Origin: Terriglobia bacterium
GTDB lineage: Bacteria; Acidobacteriota; Terriglobia; Terriglobales; Acidobacteriaceae
Direction: 5' to 3'
Assembly: GCA_041488515.1 (NCBI GenBank)
Contig: JBGPPK010000018.1
Coordinates: 18,427 to 82,426 of the forward strand
DNA: 64,000 nt
A program made the translations under genes and the position numbers. Below the pieces are notes generated by a model that had not been told where the DNA came from, did not search any database, and saw only the letters and a program-made list of their open reading frames with translations. Positions within the stretch are counted from its first letter, which is position 1. Each line of letters starts with the position of its first letter. This document shows positions 16,718 to 51,170 of this stretch, in pieces.

Positions 16718-16795
16718 GTCCCCGTCGTCTAGCCCGGCCTAGGACATCGCCCTTTCACGGCGGTAACACGGGTTCAAATCCCGTCGGGGACGCCA
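16718..16795 (+). tRNA. tRNA-Glu(UUC): tRNA-Glu (anticodon UUC), CCA encoded
   Basis: GTCCCCG/CGGGGAC acceptor stem. Anticodon loop CTTTCAC. T-arm CGGGTTCAAATCCCG. Near-identical in layout to E. coli tRNA-Glu. Confidence 0.95.
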
Positions 16796-16802
16796 AATCT
16801 TT

Positions 16803-18059
16803 TCAGCCACTTACGCCGATTCGGTCAAAAAGTCGCGGTACATCGACGGTACACGTTGATTTCGGGCGAATCATGCTCACCACTTTGCTCTGTGCGGCCC
16901 GCTTGGCCGGGGTAAGCGCCTGAGAGTAGGTATCGAGAGTCATCTTTGCGGAAGCGTGCCGCAACAGTTCTTGAACCACCTTCACGTCCTCACCATTGGC
17001 CTTCAGCAGAGTTGAGAATGTGTGACGGAATGTGTGCCAGGAGACCTTTTTGTTGATTCCCAGGTCCCGAGCCTTGGGTTGGATGTAGTAACGCATAATG
17101 GTGCTCAGCCAGAGAGGCTGTTTGCCCCGCTTTGCCCCGGCCCGTAGGTTGTCTGTGGCAAACACCCAGTCGGACAGGTTCCTGTACGGTGTTTGCTCAT
17201 ACCAAGCGAGCAGGTCTTTGGCGAGGTAGTCGTCTATCGGGACAGGTTTCCTTGAAACCTCTGTTTTCGTGTTGCCAATCTGCTGATCTACAACAGAGCG
17301 GGTTACGTTGACGAAAAGTTTCTCAAAGTTGATGTCCTCCCACTTGAGGCCAGCCAACTCGCCACGACGGAGACCGAGAGCCATGTCCAGGAATACCATC
17401 GCCCTCTCTCGAATTCCCAGTGCTTCCAGAAGCCGCTGCATCTCTTCGACTTCCAGAACATCAGGAATACGTTCACGCTTGGCCGAGACACGGACACCGG
17501 AACCCTTGATGGGCCCAGTGATGGGGTTCCTGTCTGTGAACTCCCAGCGTATAGCGTGATTGAATACACAGCTCATCGCGTCGCGGATCTTCACTTTGCT
17601 GCCCCCAGCCAGTGGTTTGGCCTCAGAACATCTTGTGTTCAGCAGCGTTTTTAGCCACTGTTCAACCGCAACCGTCTTGATCGATCGCAGTTCCAGTTTT
17701 CCCCAATGCGGAAGAACCCAGTGGTCCAGCAACAGTGTTTTCTGCCGGCGTGTTGAATAAGCTTTACGGTTATCACCGTGATCGGCGAGTTCGTGTAGTT
17801 TGTAGTGTTCAACCGCTGCCGCCATGGTCACTGAGGTCAGCTCAGTGGGGCCGTCGGTGTTAATGTTGAGCCGCAGTTTCGCCAATAGATCCTGCAGCTT
17901 CTTACTGCCTTCGGGATAATCCCTAACGGGACCGAGGGTCCTTTTGCGCTCGCGCCTCACACCGTCTGGACACTGTGTTTGCCAGCGAAATTGCCACCTC
18001 TCGACCCCATCCTTGCGTTTGACTTTCTGCAAACAGCCATTCTTGTAGCGTGCCAGCAT
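16803..18059 (-). CDS. Tyrosine recombinase / integrase
   Basis: R..HxxR..H..Y signature: LGLRRGEL, WHTFRHTF, LLRHASAKMTLDTYSQ. The stop lies 8 bp from the tRNA 3' end. Confidence 0.95.
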   Translation of the reverse strand: MLARYKNGCLQKVKRKDGVERWQFRWQTQCPDGVRRERKRTLGPVRDYPEGSKKLQDLLAKLRLNINTDGPTELTSVTMAAAVEHYKLHELADHGDNRKAYSTRRQKTLLLDHWVLPHWGKLELRSIKTVAVEQWLKTLLNTRCSEAKPLAGGSKVKIRDAMSCVFNHAIRWEFTDRNPITGPIKGSGVRVSAKRERIPDVLEVEEMQRLLEALGIRERAMVFLDMALGLRRGELAGLKWEDINFEKLFVNVTRSVVDQQIGNTKTEVSRKPVPIDDYLAKDLLAWYEQTPYRNLSDWVFATDNLRAGAKRGKQPLWLSTIMRYYIQPKARDLGINKKVSWHTFRHTFSTLLKANGEDVKVVQELLRHASAKMTLDTYSQALTPAKRAAQSKVVSMIRPKSTCTVDVPRLFDRIGVSG

Positions 18060-19952: not shown

Positions 19953-19956
<4 letters not shown>

Positions 19957-20876
19957 GAGTGCACTTGATTCTGATTGTCTGTCTGATGGCCGGCATTGGT
20001 GTGGCCCAAGCACAGGACACCAAGATCATGCCGAGCGTGACAACCGTGCCTATTGAGGAAGGTGCCGTTACGCTGCTGCACCTGAGCCCTGGCTATACGA
20101 CTTCGGTGAAACTGTCAGAGGAGATCAGTTCTGTAGTCATCGGCAATCCGGCAAGCTTCAAGGCCGAGCACTCAGATGCCGAGCCACGGCTGGTTTTCTT
20201 GAAGCCCATCACGACAGAGCCGAGCGAAAGCAATGCCTTGATAACGACCAAATCGGGCCAGGAAATTCCGCTGCATCTGGTGAGTGCGGGCAAGACATCG
20301 GCGAGTGCGCAAGTGGATTTCTTCGTGGAATATCGCCGCCCCCAGGGCCTGCTCATCCATTCCGACCGCCAGAGCTTTCTGATTGCGGAGACGCGCCCGA
20401 TTGCGCAGGCCGCACCAATCAGAGCTCCAACCCTTCCAGAGAAGCCAGATTTGGTCGCCCAGGAACTTGCGAGACAGAAGAGCCTGCCTTCGCCGGCCTG
20501 GGAAGGCAAGGAACTACTGGCAGCCGTGGGAGCATCCATCAAACAAGATCACCAGACAATCCTTGGCTTTTCAATTCTGAACAGTTCAAACCACACAATT
20601 GAACTGTTACCGCCGCAGATTGAGCTGAGTGGTTCTGGACACGGGAACAAAAGCAAGCGAATCAAAGCTGAGCCGGTACTAATCTCCGAATACCGCATGA
20701 CCACCCGACGCCTGACGCCCGGAGAACGGGCTGATGGAGTGGTGGTCTTCGAGCGACCGGCATTCAAGGAATCAAGCGAAAAACTGCAATTGCAACTGAC
20801 GCAGGCGGAGCAGGTAGATCGCCCTATTCTCTTGCCGGTGCCGTTTACCGCCAGCAGTCAAGGAGAAGCACAATGA
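19953..20876 (+). CDS. VirB9/TrbG-like (TraN-like) outer-membrane channel component, paralogue 1
   Basis: Signal peptide. N-terminal sandwich pattern (..VTLLHLSPGYTTSVKLSEEISSVVIGNPASFKAEH....LVFLKP..). The C-terminal domain resembles the second paralogue at 36091. Overlapping start and stop codons on both sides. Confidence 0.55.
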
Positions 20877-22201: not shown

Positions 22202-22245
22202 AGTCATTGGGCAAAAACCCAAACATTGTGCCAATGACTTGTTGT
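22202..22245. repeat. Hairpin repeat copy A
   Basis: AGTCATTGGGCAaaaacccaaacattgTGCCAATGACTtgttgt, starting 7 nt after the virB10 stop. Arms of 9-11 bp. Confidence 0.8.
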
Positions 22246-24418: not shown

Positions 24419-24464
24419 AGTCCCTGGGTAAAAACCCGAACATCGTGCCAATGACTTGCTGTTG
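24419..24464. repeat. Hairpin repeat copy B (degenerate left arm)
   Basis: AGTCCCTGGGTAaaaacccgaacatcgTGCCAATGACTtgctgttg. Two substitutions in the left arm break the stem. Confidence 0.7.
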
Positions 24465-24533
24465 GGTTTTGGAGCGCTCCACAGGTCTCAGTACGCCGTC
24501 GAGGAAGCACATTCTGCGGAAACGGCCCGTCAG

Positions 24534-24578
24534 AGTCATTGGATAAAAACCCAACATTGTGCCAATGACTTGCCGTTG
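24534..24578. repeat. Hairpin repeat copy C
   Basis: AGTCATTGGataaaaacccaacattgtgCCAATGACTtgccgttg. 9-bp perfect arms. Confidence 0.8.
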
Positions 24579-26652: not shown

Positions 26653-29286
26653 ATGCCAGTGACTTGGGAACAACACGAAAAGTCGCTCGACGATCCGGCG
26701 CTCTGCGAGCAGCTTCCGATACGCGATTACTTGGACAACGTGATGGTGCGCACCAACGGGGCTCTCGTGGCCGCCTATGAGGTCCGGGGGATCATTTCTT
26801 ATTTCGCCAGCGACGAGGAGCGCGACCGGAGCAAGGTCATGCTGGGCGCGCTGCTCAAGTCGATTCCCGAGCAGAGCATGAGGGTGCAGGTGCGTTATGA
26901 GGTGGTCGAAGACCTTGGCAACCTGCTTGAGTTTTACACAGCGCAGGACCGTTCTGGTAGCGATGTTGGCCGCGCTCTTGATGCTGCGAGGCTTGAGGCT
27001 TGGCGAGTGAAGTCCGACGCCGGACACTACTTGCGACCCCTGCTGCACGTCTACCTCATCTGGGATCCACAGATTCATCATCGAGTTACCGGCAAAGCCA
27101 CCCGGCGTGCCCTGAATTTCAGCCTCTCGGCCAAAGCTTCGATAGGGCGCAGCCGGAGGGAACACGAAGAGCTGTTGGCAGAGTTTGAAAGCCTGCTGGT
27201 CGGCATTGAGGCCACGATGCAGGCCGCGGAACTGGGACCACGCCGGCTTACCGACCAGGAGATGTTTCTTGAGGCCAAGAGGGCTCTGAATCCCCTGGAG
27301 CCGGACACCCGAGGCTACACACCGGGCGAAGACCATCTCGAATATCGCAGCGCGCGCCAGCAACTGGCGAACGTCAGCATTGTGGATGAGACGGATTCGT
27401 ACCTGAATCTGGGCGGTCTGCTCTATTCCTTTGTCAGCCTCAAAGAACTGCCCGATGCTACCTTCCCGGGGATTCTGCGCGAGTTGGTAGCGCTTGATTT
27501 CCCGATCGTTGTGAGCGCCCAGCTAACCATTCCCGACCAAACCAAAGTTCTAAAGGGCTACAAGAGCCGCCTCCGGAAGATGCAGGCGGCGCAGCGGGAC
27601 ACCCATGGCGGATTTCGCGTGAACGTCGAGGCACAGGTTGCAGAATCACAGTTGTTCAAGGTGCAACAGGAGATCATCGCCAGCTCGATCAAGACGGCGA
27701 AGCTCAGCCTGGTCATCGCCACACGGACGTCAAAGGCAGCCATCACGCGCCAGGAATTTGAAGAAGCCGAGCGGCTCATCAACAACCGCCGCCAGCAGCT
27801 TCTCTATGCCGTGGCCCGAATGAACGGCGCCAAAGCAATCACAGAGACCCTGGCCAAGAGACGACTCTTCTTCAGCTCGCTGCCTGGCATGGCCGACGTC
27901 GACAAGCGCGAGCAAGACATGCTGACGACCAACGCGGCCGATCTTCTACCGGTCGAGGCTCCATGGCAAGGAACGCCGCGGTCGCCCTTGTTCCTGTTTG
28001 AAACCCCGTACCGGCAGCTCATTCCGTTCTCGCCGTTTGATGCGTCGTTCAGCGACGCCAACGTACTCATCATGGCCAAGAGCGGCGGCGGCAAGACCTT
28101 CATGGTGCAGCAATTGTTGTCGATGGCCTCGCGCGCCAATCCTTTGGTTTCGATCATTGAGCGCGGAGATTCCTACAAGCCCCTGGTCGAGCTGATGGGC
28201 GGCCGGATGATCGCCATGTCCCTAGACGCGGACCAGACGATTAATCCCTGGGATTTGCCTCAAGCGGAGAAGCAGCCTGCCAAGGATCAAGTGGCCTTCT
28301 TGAAGAACTTGACCCGGCACATGCTGGGCGAGAACCCAGCGGAAGACACCGAGTTGCTGGACAACCTGATTACTGAGGCAATCCTGCGGACATACAAGCG
28401 GGCTGCGATACGACCGTCGAACCCCATCCCAACTTTTTCTGACCTTCGCGACGAGCTGTCGCAATGGCGAGACGAGGAGAAAAACCAGAGGGTGATGGAC
28501 GAGGCCCACTTGGCCGCGATCAAATTGCGCAGCTGGACCGGAGAGAAAGGGATTTACTCCAGGCTCTTTGACCACGCGACGACGATTTCACTCGACAACC
28601 CTTGGCTGTTCTTCAACGTTGAGCAGTTAGCGGACGATCCGCGGCTTGAAACAGCAATGAGCCTGCTGATCGCCCATGCCACCTCGCAGCGGGCTTCCGG
28701 CAAGACAGGCCAGCCGAGCATCACCGTGCTCGATGAGTGCTGGTTCCTGCTCGATTCGCCTGTTCTAGCGCCTGAGGTCGTGCAGTTATTCCGGACGGCG
28801 CGCAAACGCAACGCCAGTGTGTGGGGAATCAGCCAGACGGCAGAGGACTTTGTCGGATCAGAGTCCAAACCGAAAGTCCATGGCGCCGGGATCGTCAAAA
28901 ATTCCAGTACCAAGATCGTGGGCCAGCAGCCCGGGGACATGACGGCCCTGCGCGAGCACCTTCACCTCAATGCGACTGCGCTCCACCAGGTCAAGCACTT
29001 CAGCGCCCCACGCAAGGGACGCAGGGCCGATGCGCTGATCGTGATCGGGGAGAAGGCGGACACCACGCACACCATTCGCATGGTTCCAACGCCAGTCGAT
29101 TACTGGATTACCACGACCTATGCCCGCGAAAGGCTATACCGAGCATGGTGGATTGCGCAGCACAAAGATATTCCGCACATGGAGGCTTACCGGGAACTTG
29201 CCAGAAGATTCCCATTTGGCCTTGCGGATGTTGAGTCGCTTCCCGAGGAGCAGTCCATGGAAGTGGCAAAGGGAGCACACAAATGA
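26653..29286 (+). CDS. virB4: VirB4/TrbE-type conjugal transfer ATPase
   Basis: 877 aa. Walker A IMAKSGGGKTF, Walker B ITVLDECWFLLD, and the C-terminal ..VWGISQ.. motif. Confidence 0.92.
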   Translation: MPVTWEQHEKSLDDPALCEQLPIRDYLDNVMVRTNGALVAAYEVRGIISYFASDEERDRSKVMLGALLKSIPEQSMRVQVRYEVVEDLGNLLEFYTAQDRSGSDVGRALDAARLEAWRVKSDAGHYLRPLLHVYLIWDPQIHHRVTGKATRRALNFSLSAKASIGRSRREHEELLAEFESLLVGIEATMQAAELGPRRLTDQEMFLEAKRALNPLEPDTRGYTPGEDHLEYRSARQQLANVSIVDETDSYLNLGGLLYSFVSLKELPDATFPGILRELVALDFPIVVSAQLTIPDQTKVLKGYKSRLRKMQAAQRDTHGGFRVNVEAQVAESQLFKVQQEIIASSIKTAKLSLVIATRTSKAAITRQEFEEAERLINNRRQQLLYAVARMNGAKAITETLAKRRLFFSSLPGMADVDKREQDMLTTNAADLLPVEAPWQGTPRSPLFLFETPYRQLIPFSPFDASFSDANVLIMAKSGGGKTFMVQQLLSMASRANPLVSIIERGDSYKPLVELMGGRMIAMSLDADQTINPWDLPQAEKQPAKDQVAFLKNLTRHMLGENPAEDTELLDNLITEAILRTYKRAAIRPSNPIPTFSDLRDELSQWRDEEKNQRVMDEAHLAAIKLRSWTGEKGIYSRLFDHATTISLDNPWLFFNVEQLADDPRLETAMSLLIAHATSQRASGKTGQPSITVLDECWFLLDSPVLAPEVVQLFRTARKRNASVWGISQTAEDFVGSESKPKVHGAGIVKNSSTKIVGQQPGDMTALREHLHLNATALHQVKHFSAPRKGRRADALIVIGEKADTTHTIRMVPTPVDYWITTTYARERLYRAWWIAQHKDIPHMEAYRELARRFPFGLADVESLPEEQSMEVAKGAHK

Positions 29287-32156: not shown

Positions 32157-32315
32157 ATGCTGCCATGGTATCGAGGGCCAATTTATGAGCCGAAGGACAG
32201 CCGTTTCCGTCCCTGGAGCCTTACGACGCTGATCGCATTTTATGTCGGCAGATTTTTCGGCCGTCTGTTTCGAAGCAGGAGAAAAGGTCATGTGGTTAAA
32301 GAAGACAGATCCTAA
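32157..32315 (+). CDS. Unlisted 52-codon ORF with strong Shine-Dalgarno sequence (small membrane protein?)
   Basis: AAGGAGG lies 9 nt upstream of the ATG at 32157. Product MLPWYRGPIYEPKDSRFRPWSLTTLIAFYVGRFFGRLFRSRRKGHVVKEDRS*. Overlaps the virB8-like start by 26 nt. Confidence 0.35.
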   Translation: MLPWYRGPIYEPKDSRFRPWSLTTLIAFYVGRFFGRLFRSRRKGHVVKEDRS

Positions 32316-33033
32316 AGAGAAGGCACAAGCACCCGAGAAGCTCCGCTACAGCCGTTATTACGAGCATGACGGTGCCCTGCGCGCTTATGCAAACCGAGCA
32401 ATGCTCCTAGCGTTTATCTGCGTGCCGACCGCGCTCCTGGCGGTTGCAATGGCGGCCTATGTCCGCTTGCAGCCGCCAACGGTGATTCGTGTGGATGCAT
32501 CTGGCACAGCAGTTGCAGTGGACAGCAAGCCGGCAGCAAAGTCGCCGCTGGTCGTCTCCCAAGGCACCAGCGCCGAGCCGAGCGACTTTGAGAAAACCGC
32601 CTTCGTCCGGCTCTTCCTGCAGCGTTATCTGAACTTCTCGCCGGATAGTGTTAACCGCAATTGGGCCGACGGTCTGAACATGATGACTTCCAACCTTCGG
32701 CGAGCCACTCTCAGCGCGATCGAAAAGGACAACGTAGTTGGAAAGATTCAGGACGATCAGATCACTTCTGTCTTTCACGTGCGCTCGTTGGATCCGGCAA
32801 AGGATGATCCTCTCAGTTTTACAGTCTTCGGAGTGAAGGAGGTCCACCACGTCCGCGACCATCAGGAGACGAGCGACAAACTGGTAGGCGAATTTCATGT
32901 TCGGCTGATTACGGAGCGGCGCTCGGAAGCCAATCCAAGCGGTCTGCTGATTGCGGAGTACGGAGAGCGGTTGATCGAAGGAGAACGCCGGGATGCGATT
33001 GCCCAAGATACTTCCTTCGACAAAACAAATTGA
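32290..33033 (+). CDS. VirB8/TrbF-like protein
   Basis: Short cytoplasmic N-terminus and one TM helix (LLAFICVPTALLAVAMAAYV). NTF2-like periplasmic domain ending ..ANPSGLLIAEY (cf. NPlGxxV.xY). Confidence 0.65.
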   Translation: MWLKKTDPKEKAQAPEKLRYSRYYEHDGALRAYANRAMLLAFICVPTALLAVAMAAYVRLQPPTVIRVDASGTAVAVDSKPAAKSPLVVSQGTSAEPSDFEKTAFVRLFLQRYLNFSPDSVNRNWADGLNMMTSNLRRATLSAIEKDNVVGKIQDDQITSVFHVRSLDPAKDDPLSFTVFGVKEVHHVRDHQETSDKLVGEFHVRLITERRSEANPSGLLIAEYGERLIEGERRDAIAQDTSFDKTN

Positions 33034-33049
33034 TATTTGAGGAACAAAC

Positions 33050-33337
33050 ATGGACGGAGCGAAAACAACAAATGACGTTGCGCCGGGAACGTCCGAAAGG
33101 AACGGCCGTCGCCGGCGCTGGGAGATGACCAGCGACAACGTGCGCTATTTCCTGCCCAAATCCGGCAGCTCCAGCGAGAAACCGGAATTGGACCAGGAGA
33201 TGGCGAGTGAAGGAGAAGCATTGGTGCAGGCATTCAAATCCGGCCAGGTGTTCTACACCCTGGTCGCATGGAAGGCGGTGCCGGAGATCAACGGAAACGA
33301 ACCGAAAATTGTGAAGCAGGCTTTGTCCCGAAGCTGA
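33050..33337 (+). CDS. Small hypothetical protein
   Basis: 95-aa ORF following the virB8-like gene. No recognisable domain. The start may be the internal MTSDN. Confidence 0.45.
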   Translation: MDGAKTTNDVAPGTSERNGRRRRWEMTSDNVRYFLPKSGSSSEKPELDQEMASEGEALVQAFKSGQVFYTLVAWKAVPEINGNEPKIVKQALSRS

Positions 33338-33575
33338 ACGCGGGACGCGAGTTGGCACGAGTTTTCAAAAGAGACCAACAGGCTCGTCGAGCTTACGGTC
33401 CTTTGAAGACCCTACACGTTTCATGTAGGGAGATGTGCTGACCCGGCTCTAGTCGGTGCCTGGCCAGAAACCCAAAACCAGGGAGGCCAGGCAGACAGAG
33501 TGTCCGGGGAAAGCAAAAAAGCCCCTTAGTCATTGCCGGGTTTCCCGCAGCAAAAACTAAGGAGCTTTATCAATC

Positions 33576-36023
33576 ATGGAAAAGTATAGCAACAAGACGA
33601 GCAAGTTTTCAATCGAGCAGGTTGTTACGCTTGACATCGATTCAACAGGAAGTGTGACCCAACGGCTCACGAACCTGGAGACGACGCTCGAGAACACCCT
33701 TCTCAACGCGCTGTATCCCGGAATCAAAGTCGCTGTTGTGAACGTACCCAACGAGCCTCTGGATGCTTATGAGGAATCGCAGGTCGAAAACGCAATGGCG
33801 AACCTCAAGTTCAAAAACATTCCTTACAAATTAGTGGGGGCAAGTGGTTCGTCCAAAGACGGCAAGTTTTACTTCGTGGACAAGGACCACAGCCAATCGA
33901 TTGCGGAACGCTTCCAGCATTGGCCGCAGGCAGCCATCGTCTACTTCGGCATCCTGGTCTCCTCCTGCAAGGTGGTGATCGAGGAGCCGGACGTGTCGGT
34001 GCTGGTGGTTGAAGATCACGTATTGGGAACCAATGATTGCCGTGGCTGGATTCGGCGGTCGCTGTTTTCAAAACTTCAACTGCCGGAAAACTGCTTCTAC
34101 CAGTTCCGGCTGGCGTTTGAAAAAACGCAGGCCAAGGGCTCCTTCAAGGTCATGGAGGACGAGGCGGCGCAGCTGCTCGACGCCGATATTGTTCTCCCGG
34201 AAAGCGCGGTGAAACCGGGCTTGAAGGTGCCTGTTGCAATGTACTCGGTCTTTGGCAAGGGCCGCAGGTTCCGTGGGCCGGTGGTGCTGGGAATTCGCGA
34301 ATTTTCGCGGAAGCTTGAATTCGAGTCCAGCTACACCCTCATCGAACATGCGCCCGAGGACTCGATCCAGCTTGAGATCCTGCCCGAGGCACTCGGTCAG
34401 GTGCGCAGGCTGAACGACTCGATCAGCGAAGGCCGGTACACGGAACTGCTTGAGCTCCTGGGTCTTGACGATGCCGAGAAAAGCCAGGACGAGGAGGTCA
34501 GGACTGTGGAAGCGGCGCTGCTGGCCGATACCAGTGGCCATATCGTCCGCTACCCCTACATCAACAATCAACTCAACCGTCTGCTCGCCCGCTGGGCCTT
34601 TAAAGCGGCGACCGGAGGAGGATTCCGTCTGCCAGCCTATGCGCTTGCCGACGACGGATACCTGATCGTTCACGATGGAAGGCTGTATGCGGGGTCTGAC
34701 TGGATCTCAAAACAACAGGCTATTGTGGCGCTTGAGTCGAAGCGTGGTTTGTGTGTCCGTTATCCCATCCGTATGTGCGAGGACTTGTTGCCGATAGAAC
34801 ATATCGGCTCCTCAGAACTCGTCATGCAGCTCAATCGCAGTCTGGGTGAGCAGGGATGCCGGATTTCCTATGACTTGGCCGGGCAGATCGCCACACAGCA
34901 GCTGCTTCTGGAAGGCACATATGTTCTGCATTCAGAGGCGGCCAAGAAGAACGGCGGCGATTTCGATTTTGACTGGATCTGCATCCTGGAAGAAAACCGG
35001 TTCCCGCGCTTTGTGCGGAAACGATTTTCGCTCACCAACGAATTCCATCAGCAGAAGATGAAGCTCCGCAAGGCGAAATCTCCCTGGTGGAACCTCGAAC
35101 ATGTGGCGATCAAGGCCCGTGGAAACCAGATCGGCATGATTACCGACCTGAAGACCTCATGTCTGGCTGCCGGCAGGAGCGATCTTGCTTACCAGCTCGT
35201 CACTGAATTGCAGAAGGCGCTCGACAGTCTCAAGCATGAAGTCGAGCCCGACGCCAAAATCATCGCCGATATACGTCAACAGGTAAATCCCGCGCCGTGG
35301 CTCAAGTACAAGAACGAATCACGGATTTCGGGTTTGCCTATTCACCTCGATGTGGATGAGAACGATCGCATCGGGAAACTTTATAACCACGTTCGCAAGG
35401 AGATTGAAGACCTGCTTACGGCGAAGCTGCCCATAGAGGAATTCAAAGGGCTTGTCTCGGGAGAGAGTGTTACCCGGGTGATGTTCGATGAATGCCGCTA
35501 TGTAAACAGCGTTTACGCCGCGGTGGTGGGCCGTATCTCCGAACGGCAGGACAAACTCAAAGCCGATCTCGACAAGGCACAGACCGAATGGGAGGCTGTG
35601 CGCAAGGGCTCCGACAAGGAACTGCGGAAGCAAAAGCTGCAGGCACGCCGCAAGGCCTATTCCGCTCACTACCAAGGTGAAGAACGGGCCAAGCAGGAGA
35701 TGAAAGCGATCATCTCTTACGTACGTGTCTGGGCAGCGAGCAAGACCGACAACCGGATGGGATGGTGCCAGGCCTTGAACCGGGTGGTATGCAACGGCCA
35801 GGGCAGTGGCTCGATCCTCTTCCATGCCTTTCCGCAGGAACTCGTCGCGAAACTTGCAGAGCAGACGGGCGGCAAGACCGTCCGCGTTGTTGTGCCGGAG
35901 GTGTCCGGGATGTCGATTTTCCGCGACTCCGAAGGGCGCAGCTTCCTGGTCGAGAAAATTGAAGGCGGGGAAAAACAGACCTTCCTGTTTCAGTACAAGG
36001 ACGGCCAGTTCTTCTTCGGATGA
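33576..36023 (+). CDS. Eukaryotic-type RdRP / YonO-like two-barrel (DPBB) polymerase homologue
   Basis: Ordered motifs: TNDCRGWIRRSL; YQFRL..AKGSFKV; LADDGYL; VRYPIRMCEDLLPIE; NGGDFDFDWICIL (Asp triad at nt 34959-34973). AAGGAG Shine-Dalgarno sequence upstream of the ATG. Confidence 0.65.
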   Translation: MEKYSNKTSKFSIEQVVTLDIDSTGSVTQRLTNLETTLENTLLNALYPGIKVAVVNVPNEPLDAYEESQVENAMANLKFKNIPYKLVGASGSSKDGKFYFVDKDHSQSIAERFQHWPQAAIVYFGILVSSCKVVIEEPDVSVLVVEDHVLGTNDCRGWIRRSLFSKLQLPENCFYQFRLAFEKTQAKGSFKVMEDEAAQLLDADIVLPESAVKPGLKVPVAMYSVFGKGRRFRGPVVLGIREFSRKLEFESSYTLIEHAPEDSIQLEILPEALGQVRRLNDSISEGRYTELLELLGLDDAEKSQDEEVRTVEAALLADTSGHIVRYPYINNQLNRLLARWAFKAATGGGFRLPAYALADDGYLIVHDGRLYAGSDWISKQQAIVALESKRGLCVRYPIRMCEDLLPIEHIGSSELVMQLNRSLGEQGCRISYDLAGQIATQQLLLEGTYVLHSEAAKKNGGDFDFDWICILEENRFPRFVRKRFSLTNEFHQQKMKLRKAKSPWWNLEHVAIKARGNQIGMITDLKTSCLAAGRSDLAYQLVTELQKALDSLKHEVEPDAKIIADIRQQVNPAPWLKYKNESRISGLPIHLDVDENDRIGKLYNHVRKEIEDLLTAKLPIEEFKGLVSGESVTRVMFDECRYVNSVYAAVVGRISERQDKLKADLDKAQTEWEAVRKGSDKELRKQKLQARRKAYSAHYQGEERAKQEMKAIISYVRVWAASKTDNRMGWCQALNRVVCNGQGSGSILFHAFPQELVAKLAEQTGGKTVRVVVPEVSGMSIFRDSEGRSFLVEKIEGGEKQTFLFQYKDGQFFFG

Positions 36024-36090: not shown

Positions 36091-36927
36091 ATGAAGCGCG
36101 CACTGATATTTCTGTTGACGATGTATGCAGTTGTCACAGCTGCTGACGAGCTGAAGGTGAGTCAACCGCCTCCAGGTGAGGTGATCCATGTTGCGACGGC
36201 GCTTGACCATCTAACGGTGCTTGAGTTCGGAGAACCAGTCACCATGGCCGCCGCCGGCAGCCCGGCATTCCAGATTGAGCGGCACGAAGACAAGGTCTTC
36301 ATCAAGCCCTTGAAGGCTGGCGTCTCGACTGACCTCTTTGTCTGGACCGCTTCACGGCGCTTCGCCTATGAGCTAGAGCCCCCAGGGGAGGTAAAGAACA
36401 TGAATTTCGCAGTCGACAGCCGCATTCCAACACCTAAACCGGTCCCAGACAGCAGCGCACATCTGGAAGAAATCGCCGACATGATGTTCACGCGTGTATT
36501 TCTTGGAGCCGAGCGGGTGGACTCGACCAGCATCAAGGATGCCAAAGACCGCATCACCGTCCGCATCGAGCATGTATTTCAGTCCCGGAACACTCTCTAT
36601 ATTCACTATTCAATCCAGAATCAATCGGCCCGGCCATACCGAGTAACCACGCCGGCAATTGCCGAGGCACTTGCTCCGCAGGCGACCATCTCGGTCATGT
36701 CGTTTCATCACGTCCAACTCGACGATCAAATACTTCGCAGATTTGGAGAACTTAGAGAACGTCCTTTGTCTCCGGCGCGGGCGGAGGTCGAAAAGGAGGA
36801 CCTGCAACCGGGCGAGGAAACACATGGAGTCGTCGCCATCCGGGAACAAGTTGTCGCGCCAACCATCTTTCAACTGACTTTTGGTTCACTTGGTGCTCGA
36901 AAGGTGCAGGCCACGATGGTGTTTTAG
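36091..36927 (+). CDS. VirB9/TrbG-like (TraN-like) component, paralogue 2
   Basis: Signal peptide MKRALIFLLTMYAVVTA. ..LTVLEFGEPVTMAAAGSPAFQIERHEDKVFIKPLK.. plus the C-terminal LYIHYSIQNQSARPY.. domain, parallel to the 19953 product. Confidence 0.55.
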   Translation: MKRALIFLLTMYAVVTAADELKVSQPPPGEVIHVATALDHLTVLEFGEPVTMAAAGSPAFQIERHEDKVFIKPLKAGVSTDLFVWTASRRFAYELEPPGEVKNMNFAVDSRIPTPKPVPDSSAHLEEIADMMFTRVFLGAERVDSTSIKDAKDRITVRIEHVFQSRNTLYIHYSIQNQSARPYRVTTPAIAEALAPQATISVMSFHHVQLDDQILRRFGELRERPLSPARAEVEKEDLQPGEETHGVVAIREQVVAPTIFQLTFGSLGARKVQATMVF

Positions 36928-37155
36928 ATGTCAGAACGGTACATCACGGAAACCGAGACGCGGAGGCTTCTACGCGACGCATATGCGCAGGATCCTGAAA
37001 AGAGCGTCCTCGGACAAATAGGCCGAAATGCATCTGATCCGGTCATGCCGCGAGATGCGAATAACCGCCCACGTATTCATCCTCTATGGCTGACGCTTGG
37101 TTTGGTCATCCTGTTTGCAATGGTGGTCTTCTTCTATTTCAGTTTTGTTAAATGA
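36928..37155 (+). CDS. Small single-TM protein
   Basis: 75 aa with a C-terminal helix LWLTLGLVILFAMVVFFYFSFV. The start directly abuts the preceding stop, and its own stop overlaps the T4CP start. Confidence 0.55.
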   Translation: MSERYITETETRRLLRDAYAQDPEKSVLGQIGRNASDPVMPRDANNRPRIHPLWLTLGLVILFAMVVFFYFSFVK

Positions 37156-38948
37156 TCAATCACAACAGCTACGAGTATGGACGCCGCGAGTATCAACGTA
37201 CACGCGAAGACAACGGCGCGCTTGCTCTTGTGGTCCTGGCGGTAGCCTTGCTTGGGATTGGCTTTTACGTTCTGGTTTCCCGCTTTCATATTCGCACCCG
37301 TCAAATCGTGGAATTGAGCTTTTATCTGATCGCTCTGGTTGGATCCGGAATCAGCATTGCCTGGTATCTAAGGACCCGGAAGAAGCGCATCGAGAACGCC
37401 TGGCCCCATCTTGCGGTGTTTGTTCCGATGCTCAAAGATCGCCGCTATGTTGAGCGGGCTTTTGAGCAGAACGCCATCATTCCCGGCTACGACATTTACG
37501 CGCGTCCCTGGTACTGGTCTGACGACGCACGGCGGATGCAAACGGTGGTGGTTGGTCAGTCAGGGTCCGGCAAGACGACATTGCTTCACAACATTGCCAG
37601 TCAGGACATTCGCCGGACCTTTAACAGCCGGCACTTGCCAGTGATCATCTTTGACGGGAAGGGTGACCAGGAATTCCTGAATGACCTGCTGCCGGAGATT
37701 GCCGCTGCCGGCCGGCTCCATCAATTGCGGGTCCTTGATCCATTCCGCCCCGAAATCTCCGTGCGCTTTAATCCGCTCTATAACAAAGGAGGCTCGAGCC
37801 AGGAACTGGTAAATGCCTTCTTCGATTCCTTTCTGCAGCGGCAGGACTTCTTCCGAGGACACCAGGCGGCGTATTTGAGTGACGTTTGCCGTGTGCTCGA
37901 CTACACCGGAAAGATCTACAACATCCCCGATGTCTTGGTCATGGCCAGGGATGAACTGGTGCTGAGAGAGCAAATTGCCAGGGCCTCGCGCAGCATAAGC
38001 GATCAGTCCAACGTATCTCAGCACCGGCGTCAGAACTTCGAGATGTCTGCAAAGAACCTGCTTCAGTCACTTGAAGACCGCGAGCGTTTGCAGAAGATAC
38101 AGGGTTTGCTGAACGAGCTTGGGACGTTCACCGAGGACGACCTTTCGGTCATTACCAATGCCTACGACGATCTGCTGACCCTCGACGAGATCGTGGATCA
38201 GGAACTCATCCTTTTCGTCTCGTTGAACACCAACAAGAACGCGAGAGCGGTCACGGCTCTTGGTCGAATGCTGCTCCAGAATCTCCAACTTATGGTCGGT
38301 AAACGCTACCTGAACGAGCAGGAGAGACGCCGTGAAAACCGCCCGATGGTCAGCGTGATCATGGACGAATTTGCTCCGTTTGCCTATCCCAATTTTGCCC
38401 AAATCCTGCAAACCGCACGCGGCAGCAACATCGCCCTGCTGTTTTCGTTGCAATCGATTCCACAGCTGCGGAGCGTCAGCCGCAGCTTTGGTGATGATGT
38501 TTCGTCGGCGCCCAATACGATCATGCTGCTGCGCACCCGGGATGAGGAAACCGCCCGATATTTCCTCAACGCTTCGGCCAGAGTGACTGGAGAAAGACGG
38601 ACGATGACCGTCGAAAAGAAAGGTGTTCTGGACGAACATTACGAGGAGATTGGATTCGGAAGCATTACCGAAATCGAAAAGACTAGAGCGGTGGATTTTC
38701 ACATCAAGAACCTGCCTGTCGGCCAGATGCAGGTTTTGACGACCGATAACCGGTTGGGTACGCTGCACATGCACGTGCATGTGCGTCGGCCACAGAGGTG
38801 GTTCCTTTCCAGCTTTGAGGCCGTGCTATATCGACGGTTGCAGCAGGTTAACGCGGACACCAACGGCGCAAATCTGAGGTTCAAAAACCCGGATCTGACC
38901 CGTCGCATGAACCGCATATTTGGCAAGAATAGAGTCGCCTCAGCATGA
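37152..38948 (+). CDS. Type IV coupling protein (TraD/TraG/VirD4 family)
   Basis: Two N-terminal TM helices. Walker A VVVGQSGSGKTT, Walker B VSVIMDEFAPF, and ..ALLFSLQS... Confidence 0.88.
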   Translation: MINHNSYEYGRREYQRTREDNGALALVVLAVALLGIGFYVLVSRFHIRTRQIVELSFYLIALVGSGISIAWYLRTRKKRIENAWPHLAVFVPMLKDRRYVERAFEQNAIIPGYDIYARPWYWSDDARRMQTVVVGQSGSGKTTLLHNIASQDIRRTFNSRHLPVIIFDGKGDQEFLNDLLPEIAAAGRLHQLRVLDPFRPEISVRFNPLYNKGGSSQELVNAFFDSFLQRQDFFRGHQAAYLSDVCRVLDYTGKIYNIPDVLVMARDELVLREQIARASRSISDQSNVSQHRRQNFEMSAKNLLQSLEDRERLQKIQGLLNELGTFTEDDLSVITNAYDDLLTLDEIVDQELILFVSLNTNKNARAVTALGRMLLQNLQLMVGKRYLNEQERRRENRPMVSVIMDEFAPFAYPNFAQILQTARGSNIALLFSLQSIPQLRSVSRSFGDDVSSAPNTIMLLRTRDEETARYFLNASARVTGERRTMTVEKKGVLDEHYEEIGFGSITEIEKTRAVDFHIKNLPVGQMQVLTTDNRLGTLHMHVHVRRPQRWFLSSFEAVLYRRLQQVNADTNGANLRFKNPDLTRRMNRIFGKNRVASA

Positions 38949-44942: not shown

Positions 44943-45563
44943 ATGGAAACCCGAGAATACACCCCGGCGCAAGCCTCAGTACTGGCAAATCTCCCCCTTC
45001 CAGCGGTTCACAAACTCATAGAGCGTCGCCTCATTCGGCCGAGGCGCCTTCGGACAGGGCGCTCTATTCAGAGAATGCTTAACTGGGAGCAAGTGCTCTA
45101 TCTGCGTCTCGAGGCTGAGGGTGTGCGCCTCCTACCCGTAGCCGCGCGTAGAGCTATCGCAAAGCAAATCGAGGCTTCTCCCGGAAAAGACATTGTCGTT
45201 CCTGGCGGTGGTTCCGCGCTTGTAATTCAAGTGAAATCGGTGCGACAAGAGCTCGATGTAGACCTGAAGAAACTTGAACGGGCCGCAGAGATGGCGGTTT
45301 CCGACCCCGAGATCATGCATGGAACACCCGTCTATCGAGGAACCCGCATCCCTATCGAGCTCATTGCTAAGATGGTCCGGCAGGGCGCCAAAATTGACGA
45401 AATTCTGGAAGGGTATCCGGCGTTAGATCGAGAGAAGGTCGAACTCGCCCCTCTCTACGTGCAAGCCTTCCCGCGCCGTGGCCGTCCAGCAAGCCGCCCC
45501 TGGGCCAAAAGAAGACCCGTACGTGTGACACGTGAGCGCCGCGGCCTTGCGGTTCGACAATGA
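44943..45563 (+). CDS. DUF433-domain antitoxin-like protein with N-terminal HTH
   Basis: C-terminal ..MHGTPVYRGTRIPIELIAKMVRQGAKIDEILEGYPALDREKVELA.. is classic DUF433. Confidence 0.8.
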   Translation: METREYTPAQASVLANLPLPAVHKLIERRLIRPRRLRTGRSIQRMLNWEQVLYLRLEAEGVRLLPVAARRAIAKQIEASPGKDIVVPGGGSALVIQVKSVRQELDVDLKKLERAAEMAVSDPEIMHGTPVYRGTRIPIELIAKMVRQGAKIDEILEGYPALDREKVELAPLYVQAFPRRGRPASRPWAKRRPVRVTRERRGLAVRQ

Positions 45564-45940
45564 AGCTCCTCATCGATGAATGCCTGCACACTTCCTTGGT
45601 TGAACTGGCGTACGCAGCAGGGCACGCGGCGGATCATGTCAATTATCTGGCGCTGGGTGGGTACAAAGACTGGCAGATCATGGCCATAATTCGTGAACAG
45701 GAATACACGTTTGTCACCAACAATCGCGTGGATTTTCTGCGACTTCACGCCAACGAACCACTTCATGCAGGAGTGATCGTCATTGTCCCGAATGTGCCAC
45801 CGGCTGAGCAGAGAGCGCTGTTTCGTGCTGCGCTAAAGCATATCGGTACCCGAGACCTTACCAACACTATCGTTGAGGTTCGATATGCGGGCAACCGGAT
45901 TACCTGTTCTCAGTACTTTCTGCCAGAAAGTAGCCAGTGA
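45560..45940 (+). CDS. DUF5615 / Mut7-C-like PIN-fold toxin candidate
   Basis: MKLLIDECLH....GHAADHV.......DWQIMAIIREQEYTFVTNNRVDF. ATGA overlap with the DUF433 gene. Confidence 0.75.
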   Translation: MKLLIDECLHTSLVELAYAAGHAADHVNYLALGGYKDWQIMAIIREQEYTFVTNNRVDFLRLHANEPLHAGVIVIVPNVPPAEQRALFRAALKHIGTRDLTNTIVEVRYAGNRITCSQYFLPESSQ

Positions 45941-48671: not shown

Positions 48672-48977
48672 ATGTGTACAAAGATGCCTTCTATTCCCAT
48701 GCGTCGCTCCGATGACAATGTTCGGCTGGTAGTTGAAGCCACGTGCGGTTGTTGTGGGCCGATTCACAATTCACTTGCAGGTTGGGAAACGATAGAGGCC
48801 GCGTCCGCGCACACGGCGGAAACAGGCCACGTCGTAATTCTCAATGGAACGGTCGATCGCCCTGATCTCGAAGGTCTAGAAATTCTCCAGTTGTACTGCA
48901 ATTTCCCTTTCATTTCATCACCACAAATCCAGCGCACCCGAGTGCGCTGCGGCTCTTTCTATGTCATTTCACCTTGA
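48672..48977 (+). CDS. Small Cys-containing hypothetical protein
   Basis: 101-aa ORF (..VVEATCGCCGPIH..AHTAETGH..). Overlaps the kinase start by 17 nt. Confidence 0.45.
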   Translation: MCTKMPSIPMRRSDDNVRLVVEATCGCCGPIHNSLAGWETIEAASAHTAETGHVVILNGTVDRPDLEGLEILQLYCNFPFISSPQIQRTRVRCGSFYVISP

Positions 48978-49791
48978 TGCCGTACAGCACGTTAAGAGAA
49001 TGCGAGGAGGATCGCAATCGCACCTTCTCCGTGCCTCCGATGGAGGCCTCTATGTCACCAAATTCTCCAACAACCCCCAGCACGTCCGCGTACTCGCCAA
49101 CGAGATGCTGGCATCGCGGCTAGGCCGTTGGCTTGGCCTGCCGATGCCTGAAGTGGCTGTCATCGAAGTGTCCGATTGGCTGGTCCAGCACACGCCTGAG
49201 CTGTGTTTCGACACTGCCGGTCTGAGAGCCAAATGCAACAGTGGCCGCCAGCTTGGTTCACGGTATCCATGCGATCCCCTGGAAGACGTGCTCTTTGACT
49301 ATCTTCCCGAAAGCATGTTCACCAGAGTCAAAAACGCCGCTGACTTTGCGCGTGTACTCGTGCTGGATAAATGGACGGCCAATTGCGATGGGCGACAGGT
49401 GGTGTTCAGCAAGAGAGCGAAGCAACGCCTCTATACCGCGACATTCATTGATCAGGGTTATTGCTTCAATGCCGGAGAGTGGACGTTCCCAGATTCTCCG
49501 CTGCGGGGAGTCTATGCCCGTAACTGTGTCTACCAGCACGTAACCAGCTGGGAATCGTTTGAGCCCGCCCTGACCAGGGCCGAACAGGCTGACCCCGTTG
49601 ATATCTGGCGCTGCGCCGATGCCATCCCGCCCGAGTGGTACGGGCACGACCATGACGCCTTACAGGCACTTGTCGAAACACTTTACCAGCGACGACTCAA
49701 GATCCGCGACGTGATCACCGCTTTCCGGGAATCGAGCCGACAGCCGTTTCCCAGTTGGAAGTGTTCCACCACCCAAGTCTTCATGCCCTAG
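48961..49791 (+). CDS. HipA-like (PI3/4-kinase fold) Ser/Thr kinase
   Basis: VKRMRGGSQSHLLRASDGGLYVTKFSNNPQ..RVLANEMLASRLGRWLGLPMPE plus a catalytic-loop-like LVLDKWTANCDGRQ and ..TFIDQGYCF (DxG). Confidence 0.65.
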   Translation: MSFHLDAVQHVKRMRGGSQSHLLRASDGGLYVTKFSNNPQHVRVLANEMLASRLGRWLGLPMPEVAVIEVSDWLVQHTPELCFDTAGLRAKCNSGRQLGSRYPCDPLEDVLFDYLPESMFTRVKNAADFARVLVLDKWTANCDGRQVVFSKRAKQRLYTATFIDQGYCFNAGEWTFPDSPLRGVYARNCVYQHVTSWESFEPALTRAEQADPVDIWRCADAIPPEWYGHDHDALQALVETLYQRRLKIRDVITAFRESSRQPFPSWKCSTTQVFMP

Positions 49792-50132: not shown

Positions 50133-51170
50133 ATGAGAAACCAGGGAAAAATCAAACTTGGCTTTTACCCGTTGCCCGCAGCCGAAGCCAGCCGCCTGAA
50201 GAATTGTCTTCTCTTCAGGGAGCAGTTCTCAGCAGTTGATCCGTGCATCGGCGATGGTGTTGCCTTTTGCACGCTCTTGGAAGACGCCTCGGCCCATCGG
50301 TATGGAATTGAGATTGACGCCCATCGCGCAGAACAGGCCAAAGGCATGGGAATCAGCACCGTTCAGGCAAACGCGCTCGATGTGCGCTGTCCGGCGGAGA
50401 GCATTTCACTGCTCTACCTGAACCCGCCTTACGACTTTGAGGCCGGCACAAGCGGCAATCAACGACTGGAACGGGTGTTTCTGGAACACTCTTACCGGTG
50501 GCTCAAGCCGGCGGGGGTGCTGGTCTTTGTGATTCCACAACCGCAGTTGCAGCCCTGCGCCCGGCTGTTGGCGGAGCACTTTACGAATCTCCGCGTCTAT
50601 CGGCTTACTGACCCGGCCTGTCTCCAATACAGGCAAATTGCGGTACTGGGAGTGCGACGTAAACGCAATGAGCGCACAAGCGACGCGGCGCTGCTTGACA
50701 CGGCCCGATACCTCGAAGGTCTGTCGGCCAAGAACGATCTCGGAGCACTGGCCGGTGAACCCGATGGCCGATATGAGGTGCCCGGTTCTCAACCCATCGT
50801 TCTGACCAACACCGGTATTCCGCTCGATGAGGTCGAAGACCTTTTGCTTGGATCTGCCGCTTACCGCCAGGCCAGCCGGGTGCTGCTTCGCGAGCAAAGC
50901 AGTGTGCGCGGCAGACCTCTGACGCCTCTTCATGGCGGCCACGTTGGCCTGCTCTGTACGGCCGGAATGCTCAACGGAGTATTTGGGGAAGGCGAAGAGC
51001 GCCACATCGCCCACTGGCGTTCCGTCAAATTTACCGACCACTGGCAGGAAGAGGAGCCGGACGGGACCATTCTCATTCATGACCGCGAGCGCTTCTCGCA
51101 CGAACTGACGCTCATATTCGCCTGCGGCAAGACGCAAATTCTTACACATGAAAAGCAGAATCCATCATGA
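50133..51170 (+). CDS. SAM-dependent amino (N6-A/N4-C) DNA methyltransferase
   Basis: Motif I-like VDPCIGDGVAF and motif IV LLYLNPPYD. It resembles the orphan MTases common on ICEs (often labelled DUF6094). Confidence 0.75.
   Translation: MRNQGKIKLGFYPLPAAEASRLKNCLLFREQFSAVDPCIGDGVAFCTLLEDASAHRYGIEIDAHRAEQAKGMGISTVQANALDVRCPAESISLLYLNPPYDFEAGTSGNQRLERVFLEHSYRWLKPAGVLVFVIPQPQLQPCARLLAEHFTNLRVYRLTDPACLQYRQIAVLGVRRKRNERTSDAALLDTARYLEGLSAKNDLGALAGEPDGRYEVPGSQPIVLTNTGIPLDEVEDLLLGSAAYRQASRVLLREQSSVRGRPLTPLHGGHVGLLCTAGMLNGVFGEGEERHIAHWRSVKFTDHWQEEEPDGTILIHDRERFSHELTLIFACGKTQILTHEKQNPS

Follow-up and report, generated by a model that had tools for sequence, protein, structure and literature searches.

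A homologue of two-barrel RNA-dependent RNA polymerases is a fixed core gene of the mating operon in a mainly acidobacterial family of integrative conjugative elements

The DNA analysed here is a 64,000-nt stretch from a Terriglobia bacterium (contig JBGPPK010000018.1 of assembly GCA_041488515.1, positions 18,427 to 82,426), referred to below as the window, and all coordinates without a further label are those of the window. It carries an integrative conjugative element (ICE) with the genes of a type IV secretion system (T4SS), and within these genes lies an open reading frame (ORF) of 815 codons (33576..36023, + strand). We conclude, with near certainty, that the product of this gene is a two-barrel, single-chain nucleotide polymerase of the class of cellular RNA-dependent RNA polymerases (RdRP) and QDE-1 and that the gene is a core member of the mating operon, as indicated by the ORF itself, sequence profiles, a structural model and Foldseek searches. 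Comparison of related loci shows that the mating-pair-formation operon of a large ICE family, found mostly in Acidobacteriota (Terriglobales), has the polymerase gene as a fixed core member.

The ORF starts with ATG and is preceded by an AAGGAG ribosome-binding site at 33559-33564. A preliminary description, made from the sequence of the window, had read the signature blocks of the RdRP family in the translated protein, and on recomputation every block and coordinate proved exact. The blocks are TNDCRGWIRRSL at aa 152-163, YQFRLAFEKTQAKGSFKV at aa 175-192 (nt 34098-34151), RLPAYALADDGYL at aa 351-363, GLCVRYPIRMCEDLLPIE at aa 391-408 and NGGDFDFDWICIL at aa 459-471, the last of which contains the Asp triad D462/D464/D466 of a DFDFD loop (codons at 34959..34973, + strand, confirmed by recomputed coordinates and by alignments). 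Since a bare DxDxD arises by chance in ~11% of shuffles of the polymerase sequence, the triad alone is weak evidence. The motif as a whole stands above chance because D154, Q176, R178, K187, R395, P397, G461 and D462/D464/D466 are invariant in both of the alignments that were compared, and because the blocks are in register with a clade of relatives that matches the Pfam RdRP family PF05183 and with the PDB chains 7w82 and 7w84.

The first of these alignments contains 27 sequences down to 24% identity and has 23 invariant residues, including T152, D154, Q176, R178, K187, K213, R395, P397, G461, D462, D464 and D466; these are still invariant in a 56-sequence alignment covering two clades. The first, beta-subunit-like barrel region spans ~aa 133-243 (33972..34304, + strand; boundaries from secondary structure, following the beta-strand pattern of the model) and holds the invariant residues D154 (34035-34037), Q176, R178 (34107-34109), K187 (34134-34136) and K213 (34212-34214), with K191 conserved in at least 90% of the aligned sequences. 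The second, beta-prime-like barrel region, ~aa 351-472 (34626..34991, + strand; from model strands and invariant residues), holds R395-Y-P397 (34758-34766) and the metal-binding loop G461-D462-F-D464-F-D466, which is invariant in the window-clade alignment (A1), in A2 and in the superfamily alignment (A6). Beside the DxDxD loop, the residues described for the superfamily are one Asp with two basic residues from the first barrel, and an R..P pair from the second (PMC2919709). All residues on that list are present and invariant in the window polymerase (D154, R178, K187, K213 and R395-Y-P397), and we infer that the two lysines correspond one to one to superfamily basic residues. The catalytic set, consisting of the first-barrel Asp and basic residues, the second-barrel R-x-P and the DxDxD loop, is thus apparently complete and invariant.

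The polymerase protein alone has no significant match in Pfam, NCBIfam, PHROG or PDB sequences. Against PF05183 it remains below the gathering cutoff of 23.8 bits and gives no match even at E ≤ 10, and the profiles A1 and A2 retrieve coiled-coil noise alone from PDB sequences. All database homologues of the protein are annotated "hypothetical", and routine annotation misses the polymerase relationship that the preliminary description had recognised. A family profile, by comparison, retrieves 754 cluster representatives at E ≤ 1e-3, including the protein P0257, which A1 matches at E ~1e-41, and proteins of cyanobacterial plasmids. Distant members of the family approach the PF05183 cutoff from below (P0257 17.1 bits, P0140 13.6 bits). 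A search seeded with the most distant members led to a sister clade (P0271-P0306; alignment A4), members of which exceed the cutoff on direct scan with 25-40 bits; examples are P0283 with 40.0 bits (E 2.7e-10), P0294 with 34.6 bits and P0292 with 31.1 bits.

Aligned with hhalign, A1 and A4 match with a probability of 100% and an E-value of 1.9e-52 over 613 columns (aa 37-767). The alignment pairs TNDCRGW with TGDGxGY, YQFR…QAKG with QIQVRL…GKG, VRYPIR with TRYPIR and GGDFDFD with DGDYDGD, and homology of the window polymerase to member proteins of PF05183 is thereby demonstrated through the sister clade. The best PDB sequence matches of the A4 profile are the RNA-dependent RNA polymerase chains 7w82 and 7w84, which we take to be plant RDRs; these matches are weak (E 0.14 and 0.17, respectively) and keep the motif register (SDGIGKIS, FQIRYGGYKG and GDLDGD). 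The preliminary description had proposed an RdRP-type enzyme built on double-psi beta-barrels (DPBB), and had regarded the motif matches as coincidental should profile or structure searches find no such relationship. Since both kinds of search did return RdRP/DPBB relatives, by the hhalign match to the PF05183-positive clade and by Foldseek matches to two-barrel RNA polymerases (RNAPs), the identification stands.

The structural evidence comes from an AlphaFold (AF2) model built on the 56-sequence alignment. This final model has a predicted local distance difference test (pLDDT) score of 88.3 and a predicted template modelling score (pTM) of 0.82, and residues 1-12 alone fall under 50. It supersedes an earlier model from a shallow alignment of 28 close homologues (pLDDT 70, catalytic loops <50), for which QDE-1 was the sole significant PDB match (E 2.8e-7, TM 0.3). 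In a Foldseek search of the PDB with the final model, all matches with E ≤ 1e-3 (7/7) are single-subunit two-barrel RNA polymerases. The top matches are structures of QDE-1 in complex with a DNA template (7y7t_A, E 1e-12, TMq 0.54; 7y7r_A, E 2.8e-12), followed by the RNA polymerase gp64 of phage P32 (8f72) and gp62 of P74 (8f5m), with E-values from 6e-9 to 2.5e-8, and by the virion RNAP of the crAss-like phage phi14:2 (6vr4_A, E 8.4e-7). Both QDE-1 and the crAss-like virion enzyme had been named beforehand as proper points of comparison. Lower matches with non-significant E-values include Pol IV, bacterial beta-prime chains and isolated DPBB domains (probability 0.75-0.9, E 0.1-0.4). The model and the Foldseek matches agree on two DPBB domains in one chain, beta-like and then beta-prime-like, and the global fold match would place the DFDFD loop at the interface of the barrels.

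The preliminary description had also called the protein YonO-like, after the polymerase of the Bacillus prophage SPbeta. This holds for the fold class and does not hold for family membership. A YonO family profile (22 sequences, A8) aligned with the window superfamily (A6) at a non-significant hhalign probability of 0.5% (E 0.11), A1 and A2 aligned with the single SPbeta YonO sequence at 0.1-0.2%, and A4 aligned with YonO at 1.2%, likewise non-significant. The YonO alignment (463 columns) is nonetheless in the right motif register, with HTDGCGM, MVRLPW-IKG, LRSPHLYREH, FDNDGD and NIGEISNNIT. The window polymerase matches no PHROG, including phrog_8308 to which YonO belongs; tblastn against 50,697 phage records gave a chance match only and no polymerase relative, and no relative was found among the viral contigs of IMG/VR. 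Membership in the YonO family was therefore rejected on the grounds of the non-significant profile comparison, the lack of a PHROG match and the lack of a phage context. We file the polymerase as a separate bacterial clade of RdRP-type two-barrel enzymes that by sequence lies nearer to the periphery of PF05183 than to YonO.

The genes named as neighbours of the polymerase gene in the preliminary description are real. On the + strand, a VirB8-like gene (32242..33033; PF04335, E 2e-4) and a 95-aa ORF (33050..33337; recognised by synteny, no Pfam match) precede the polymerase gene and its leader, and a CagX/VirB9-like gene (36106..36927; PF03524, E 3.7e-10) and the gene of a type IV coupling protein (T4CP, VirD4/TraG-like; 37152..38948; PF02534, PF12696 and PF10412) follow it. 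How far this arrangement is conserved was determined in 378 matched stretches that encode a relative in GTDB species representatives, with synteny analysed in the best 80, and in 382 further stretches from a metagenome scan seeded with intermediate family members, of which 80 loci were kept, giving 160 loci overall. Wherever the flanks exist, the polymerase gene lies between VirB8/95-aa ORF and VirB9/T4CP in 160/160 loci, a linkage stronger than the one originally proposed. Among the 80 genome loci, the 95-aa ORF is present in 77, VirB8 in 75, VirB9 in 70, T4CP in 63, VirB4 in 62, the relaxase in 56 and an AEP primase in 47; among the 80 metagenome loci, the 95-aa ORF and VirB9 are in the matching position in 67 and 74, respectively. 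The metagenome loci include clearly more divergent clades, and their arrangement is unchanged.

The best 80 genome loci come almost all from Terriglobales or other Acidobacteriota, with two metagenome-assembled genomes labelled Chthoniobacterales and Dormiibacterota. They include the cultured strains Telmatobacter bradus DSM 23630 and Tunturiibacter psychrotolerans X4BP1, and the closest locus is in a Terriglobia metagenome-assembled genome with 98% protein identity (L003). Over successive identity bins, the values for the polymerase (92/79/59/51%) are followed by those of T4CP (88/64/57/52%) and VirB8 (77/71/62/51%), with VirB9 at 75/56/49/39%. Divergence of the polymerase thus keeps pace with that of T4CP and VirB8, and its gene behaves as a core gene, not as a passenger. 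The 95-aa ORF, found at nearly every locus next to the polymerase gene, possibly encodes a partner or regulator of the enzyme.

The gap in front of the polymerase gene measures 238 nt in the window and ~240-290 nt across the family, and it contains a feature that the preliminary description had missed, a structured 5' leader of ~185 nt (33393..33575, + strand) with four helices, P1 to P4, delineated with nhmmer, RNAalifold and minimum free energy (MFE) folds. By nhmmer, the window has one copy of the leader, on the + strand and directly upstream of the polymerase gene. The leader was found in 102 related loci, always on the + strand and as a single copy in each except L052. That locus has two tandem copies (9819-9994 and 11034-11212 of its own coordinates), parted by a ~1.2-kb insertion between the 95-aa ORF and the polymerase gene. 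In the alignment of the leaders, the invariant blocks UUUGA and GCUGACC stand between co-varying hairpins. P1 is a hairpin, P2 is a long stem of GCUGACC and GGUCAGC that encloses P3, and P3 is a hairpin pairing CCUGGCC with GGCCAGG. In P4, an anti-Shine-Dalgarno segment (~33522-33532) is paired with the Shine-Dalgarno region (~33554-33564), and the two strands change together from CUCCUUAG/CUAAGGAG to CUCCUUAA/UUAAGGAG and to CUCCUUGU/ACAAGGAG. P1 and P3 are recovered by RNAalifold and show many double substitutions, and independent MFE folds of divergent leaders concur on all four helices.

Pairing was assessed for a 36-pair consensus on 38 non-redundant leaders, which are related to each other and from which the consensus structure itself was derived; with this proviso, 86% of the cells are paired, compared with 31-50% when the partners are slid. 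Compensatory cells number 81, against 27.5 ± 6.8 in shuffles (0/500 reach 81), and the covariation score is 0.259, against 0.194 ± 0.007 (0/500). Two further counts were not significant, namely pairs changed on both sides (13 observed, a value reached by 51/500 shuffles) and further standard pair types (42 observed, reached by 443/500). The frequent G·U pairs on the + strand and the pairing of the Shine-Dalgarno region argue for an element that acts at the mRNA level. No Rfam family reached its gathering score for the leader, and the sole weak match was an irrelevant long non-coding RNA at 10 bits. We regard the leader as a candidate for a new cis-regulatory RNA whose predicted structure hides the ribosome-binding site. 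It probably keeps translation of the polymerase off until P4 is opened by a signal, which could be a ligand, a protein (possibly the polymerase or the product of the 95-aa ORF), temperature or a small RNA. Among transcription signals, a sigma-54-like box upstream of the leader (TTGGCACGAGTTTTCA) was rejected, as it does not reach the consensus within one mismatch and is not conserved in all clades; matches to a sigma-54-type consensus within one mismatch number 11 in the window, where ~7 are expected. A scan for sigma-70 promoters and terminators around the polymerase gene gave background levels.

The ICE begins at its left end with a tRNA-Glu gene (16718-16795, + strand; ARAGORN and Rfam) and a tyrosine integrase gene (16803-18059, - strand; PF00589, E 1e-23), accompanied by an HTH_17 excisionase-like gene. 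There follow an SLT/VirB1-like gene, a CagX/VirB9-like gene, TrbI/VirB10 and a cargo block (TetR, SDR and DUF1330), and after the cargo a VirB4-like ATPase gene in the operon of the polymerase (26653..29286, + strand; PF19044, E 3e-18), several unannotated ORFs, VirB8, the 95-aa ORF and the polymerase gene. [quoted passage not shown] The AEP-type primase and the polymerase are two potential priming enzymes, and together with SSB and Rad52 they would make up a complete set for handling single-stranded DNA (ssDNA).

Several further features of the ICE were recorded. Two CagX/VirB9-like paralogues are present, one beside VirB10 (19953-20876) and the other immediately behind the polymerase gene. 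The cargo block, which splits the T4SS genes after VirB10 and ahead of the VirB4 operon, is flanked by three copies (22202-22245, 24419-24462 and 24533-24576) of a partly palindromic 44-nt repeat (AGTCATTGG...CCAATGACT); the repeat might mark a site of recombination or insertion, or be an operator or terminator element. The accessory region encodes a DUF433/DUF5615 toxin-antitoxin pair, a HipA-like kinase, a DUF6094 methyltransferase and an SNF2/ResIII helicase (44943-45940, 48961-49791, 50133-51170 and 55397-57736). Such accessory genes are typical of stabilisation and anti-restriction modules.

The distant relatives of the polymerase are not linked to a T4SS. The PF05183-positive clade (for instance L083 10001-12376 and L084 10001-12427, in locus coordinates) is found in small islands together with a tyrosine integrase, Rad52, DUF932 and a PDDEXK nuclease (PDDEXK_1). 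These islands carry AbiEi/AbiEii, adjoin type I-E CRISPR-Cas, type I restriction-modification (RM) and ThsB-TIR/SLATT (Thoeris) genes, contain no T4SS and look like a distinct integrative element family. A Rad52 gene accompanies both the ICE in the window and the relatives without a T4SS. Relatives with ~23% identity are present on cyanobacterial plasmids, such as pPg_05 of Pseudanabaena galeata (L001 11920-14283) and the plasmids of hits H3-H7; the cyanobacterial protein matches phrog_34895 strongly and phrog_8308 weakly, at E 0.024. Neighbours of the cyanobacterial copies are a Rho-N-domain protein, two SAM methyltransferases, a large DEAD/DEAH helicase and a PLD nuclease. Since the distant relatives reside in islands and plasmids outside T4SS loci, the enzyme class is a general mobile-element module, one lineage of which has become fixed in a conjugation operon.

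Conjugation and the rolling-circle replication of ICEs yield ssDNA that needs priming and, ideally, early expression. The polymerase may serve this need. It would be made in the donor alongside the transfer machinery and would synthesise RNA on the single-stranded DNA transfer intermediate of the ICE, working together with the element's own SSB. The RNA product would serve either as primer for the complementary strand or as a source of transcripts while the DNA is still single-stranded, and the site of action could be the donor, the recipient or both cells. We infer such a role because QDE-1 favours ssDNA, because conjugation generates ssDNA, because a primase role has been proposed for relatives and because in the ICE as well as in the distant islands the enzyme is accompanied by proteins that handle ssDNA (SSB, Rad52). 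QDE-1 is a robust RNA polymerase on ssDNA, far above its activity on RNA templates, and is inactive on double-stranded DNA (dsDNA); it initiates internally on circular M13 and phiX174 ssDNA, giving DNA/RNA hybrids, and accepts ssDNA coated with the ssDNA-binding complex RPA (PMC2950127). For bacterial RdRP-like enzymes of selfish elements, a primase role was proposed by Iyer and Aravind (summarised in PMC3417536). In known conjugation systems, the primase SogL passes through the T4SS in hundreds of copies (PMC8406263), and folded ssDNA of the Frpo promoter recruits host RNAP (PMC9849209).

Several points weigh against this role. The C-terminus of the polymerase (...EKQTFLFQYKDGQFFFG) does not form the kind of positively charged tail that many VirB/D4 substrates have, and no export signal is evident in it. 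The ICE already encodes an AEP-type primase, so that a second priming enzyme is not obviously needed. YonO is a processive dsDNA phage transcriptase and not a primase (PMC5467207), the occurrence of relatives without a T4SS implies that the basic enzyme activity is not tied to conjugation, and in the window clade the central Gly of the canonical DxDGD is replaced by Phe. The ssDNA-templated role of the polymerase, which draws on analogy with QDE-1, is put forward tentatively, as somewhat less likely than not but ahead of each alternative below, and the complete explanation, in which polymerase identity and operon membership are joined with ssDNA-templated RNA synthesis, appears to us about evenly balanced between right and wrong. 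A more specific version is unlikely; in it, the polymerase would be an 'establishment' enzyme that is loaded on the transferred strand or exported with it through the T4SS and makes the first RNA (primers, early transcripts or both) in the recipient, with a QDE-1-like ssDNA-to-RNA role and with its synthesis gated by a new class of structured leader RNA that the enzyme itself might bind.

Alternatively, the polymerase could be an element-specific transcriptase that acts in the donor on promoters of the double-stranded ICE DNA, independently of host sigma factors. It would then transcribe transfer or establishment genes and might form a self-reinforcing switch, since its gene lies inside the operon. 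The precedent is YonO, the only functionally characterised bacterial enzyme of the fold class that was found, which is a processive DNA-dependent RNAP transcribing the late operon of SPbeta (PMC5467207); the structural matches P32 gp64 and the crAss-like virion RNAP are phage transcriptases as well, and a gene-specific, tightly controlled leader would suit a master-switch gene. However, no convincing repeated element-specific promoter motif was found between 16.8 and 52 kb, the window holds a single copy of the leader element, the polymerase family has no detectable sequence relation to YonO, and QDE-1, the closest enzyme by fold, does not use dsDNA. We regard this alternative as somewhat unlikely. 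An RNA-templated function is quite improbable, be it that of a true RdRP or a role in conflict, with small or double-stranded RNAs or nucleotide products directed against host defence or regulating the ICE. The conserved island partners (integrase, Rad52, DUF932 and PDDEXK) belong to mobile-element replication and recombination and not to defence; a bacterial partner resembling RNA interference (RNAi) was neither found in reports nor seen beside the polymerase gene, and the strict embedding in the T4SS points to DNA-transfer biology. For such a function speak the sister clade scoring above the Pfam RdRP cutoff, the combined RdRP and DNA-dependent RNA polymerase activities of QDE-1, the CRISPR, RM, AbiE and Thoeris genes that adjoin the islands of the distant relatives, and the RdRP-like modules in secreted type III effectors (bioRxiv 10.64898/2026.07.12.738046).

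The two remaining explanations depart further from RNA synthesis. Archaeal DNA polymerase PolD shares the two-barrel fold (PMC7824862; see also PMC6355029), and a PolD-like enzyme could make the complementary DNA strand itself. Among the 50 Foldseek matches listed, however, there is no PolD chain and the significant ones are all RNA polymerases, and the sequence link of the window protein runs to the RdRP family, which makes DNA synthesis highly improbable. Hardly credible at all is a catalytically dead scaffold or structural subunit of the T4SS, or a chance motif match. The gene does lie among structural T4SS genes, and the protein itself has no direct Pfam, NCBIfam or PDB sequence match; but the catalytic residues are all invariant over deep divergence, profiles and fold speak very strongly for the polymerase family, and Pfam and NCBIfam searches gave no homology to VirB1-11, VirD4 or relaxase proteins for a protein with a polymerase fold. 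Chance in particular, as the source of the motif match, is effectively refuted by residue invariance together with the profile and fold evidence.

How transferred ssDNA is primed and expressed is understood for only a few proteobacterial plasmids, which use ssDNA promoters or exported DnaG-type primases. If the polymerase acts on the transfer intermediate, it would represent a third, mechanistically different solution and a new accessory component of the T4SS, and it would offer a tractable bacterial model, with cultured hosts, for the ancestral role of those polymerases which eukaryotes took over for RNAi. As an 'establishment' enzyme, it would be the conjugative counterpart of the RNA polymerases injected by some phages and would reveal bacterial relatives of the eukaryotic RNAi polymerases in a QDE-1-like ssDNA-to-RNA role. 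If it is merely an element-specific transcriptase, it would still be, to our knowledge, the first in a conjugative element as opposed to a phage. Public genomes and metagenomes hold at least 760 matched stretches that encode a relative, and the ICE family is abundant in soil Acidobacteriota. The finding, which suggests that some conjugative elements bring their own enzyme for making RNA on transferred single-stranded DNA, is relevant to those who study conjugation or the evolution of RNA polymerases. That phages and novel selfish elements encode bacterial RdRP-like two-barrel enzymes is already known (PMC2919709, PMC3417536, PMC7824862). In the searchable literature, no RdRP-like enzyme was found described as a conserved gene of a T4SS or ICE operon; the 2012 study of Iyer and Aravind, represented here by later summaries, may list such a case.

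Compared with known systems, the window polymerase is structurally most like QDE-1 of Neurospora and Thielavia and the cellular RdRPs of PF05183, with which it has the motif order in common (barrel-1 D, Q-x-R...K-G, R-x-P, GGDxDxD). It differs from them in its DFDFD loop, where they have DxDGD, in falling below PF05183 detection, in a structurally aligned identity of only ~12%, and in being a bacterial enzyme in a conjugation operon without RNAi partners. With the bacterial RdRP-like enzymes of selfish elements (PMC3417536, PMC7824862) it shares the single-chain two-barrel architecture, the encoding by a mobile element and, as proposed for them, perhaps a primase role. The enzymes of Iyer and Aravind were described with restriction endonuclease (REase)/URI nucleases or RNase H fusions, unlike the window enzyme; the PF05183-positive sister clade and the cyanobacterial plasmid copies fit the selfish-element description. 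YonO resembles the window polymerase in fold class, size (839 aa), single chain, mobile-element origin and motif register; it transcribes dsDNA late genes in a prophage, whereas the window enzyme belongs to an ICE and has no significant profile relation to it. The RNAPs phi14:2 gp66, P32 gp64 and P74 gp62 are significant fold matches encoded, like the window enzyme, by elements that deliver DNA into a new cell, and differ in the type of mobile element and by very low sequence identity. The crAss-like enzyme is delivered together with the phage DNA. SogL of ColIb-P9, TraC of RP4 and Frpo may be likened to the polymerase as a purely functional analogy, in that RNA is made on incoming ssDNA; they rely on DnaG- or AEP-type primases or on host RNAP, in contrast to the two-barrel fold found here. 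Taken together, the window polymerase is a known enzyme class in a new, fixed functional context, and it is accompanied by a candidate new regulatory RNA.

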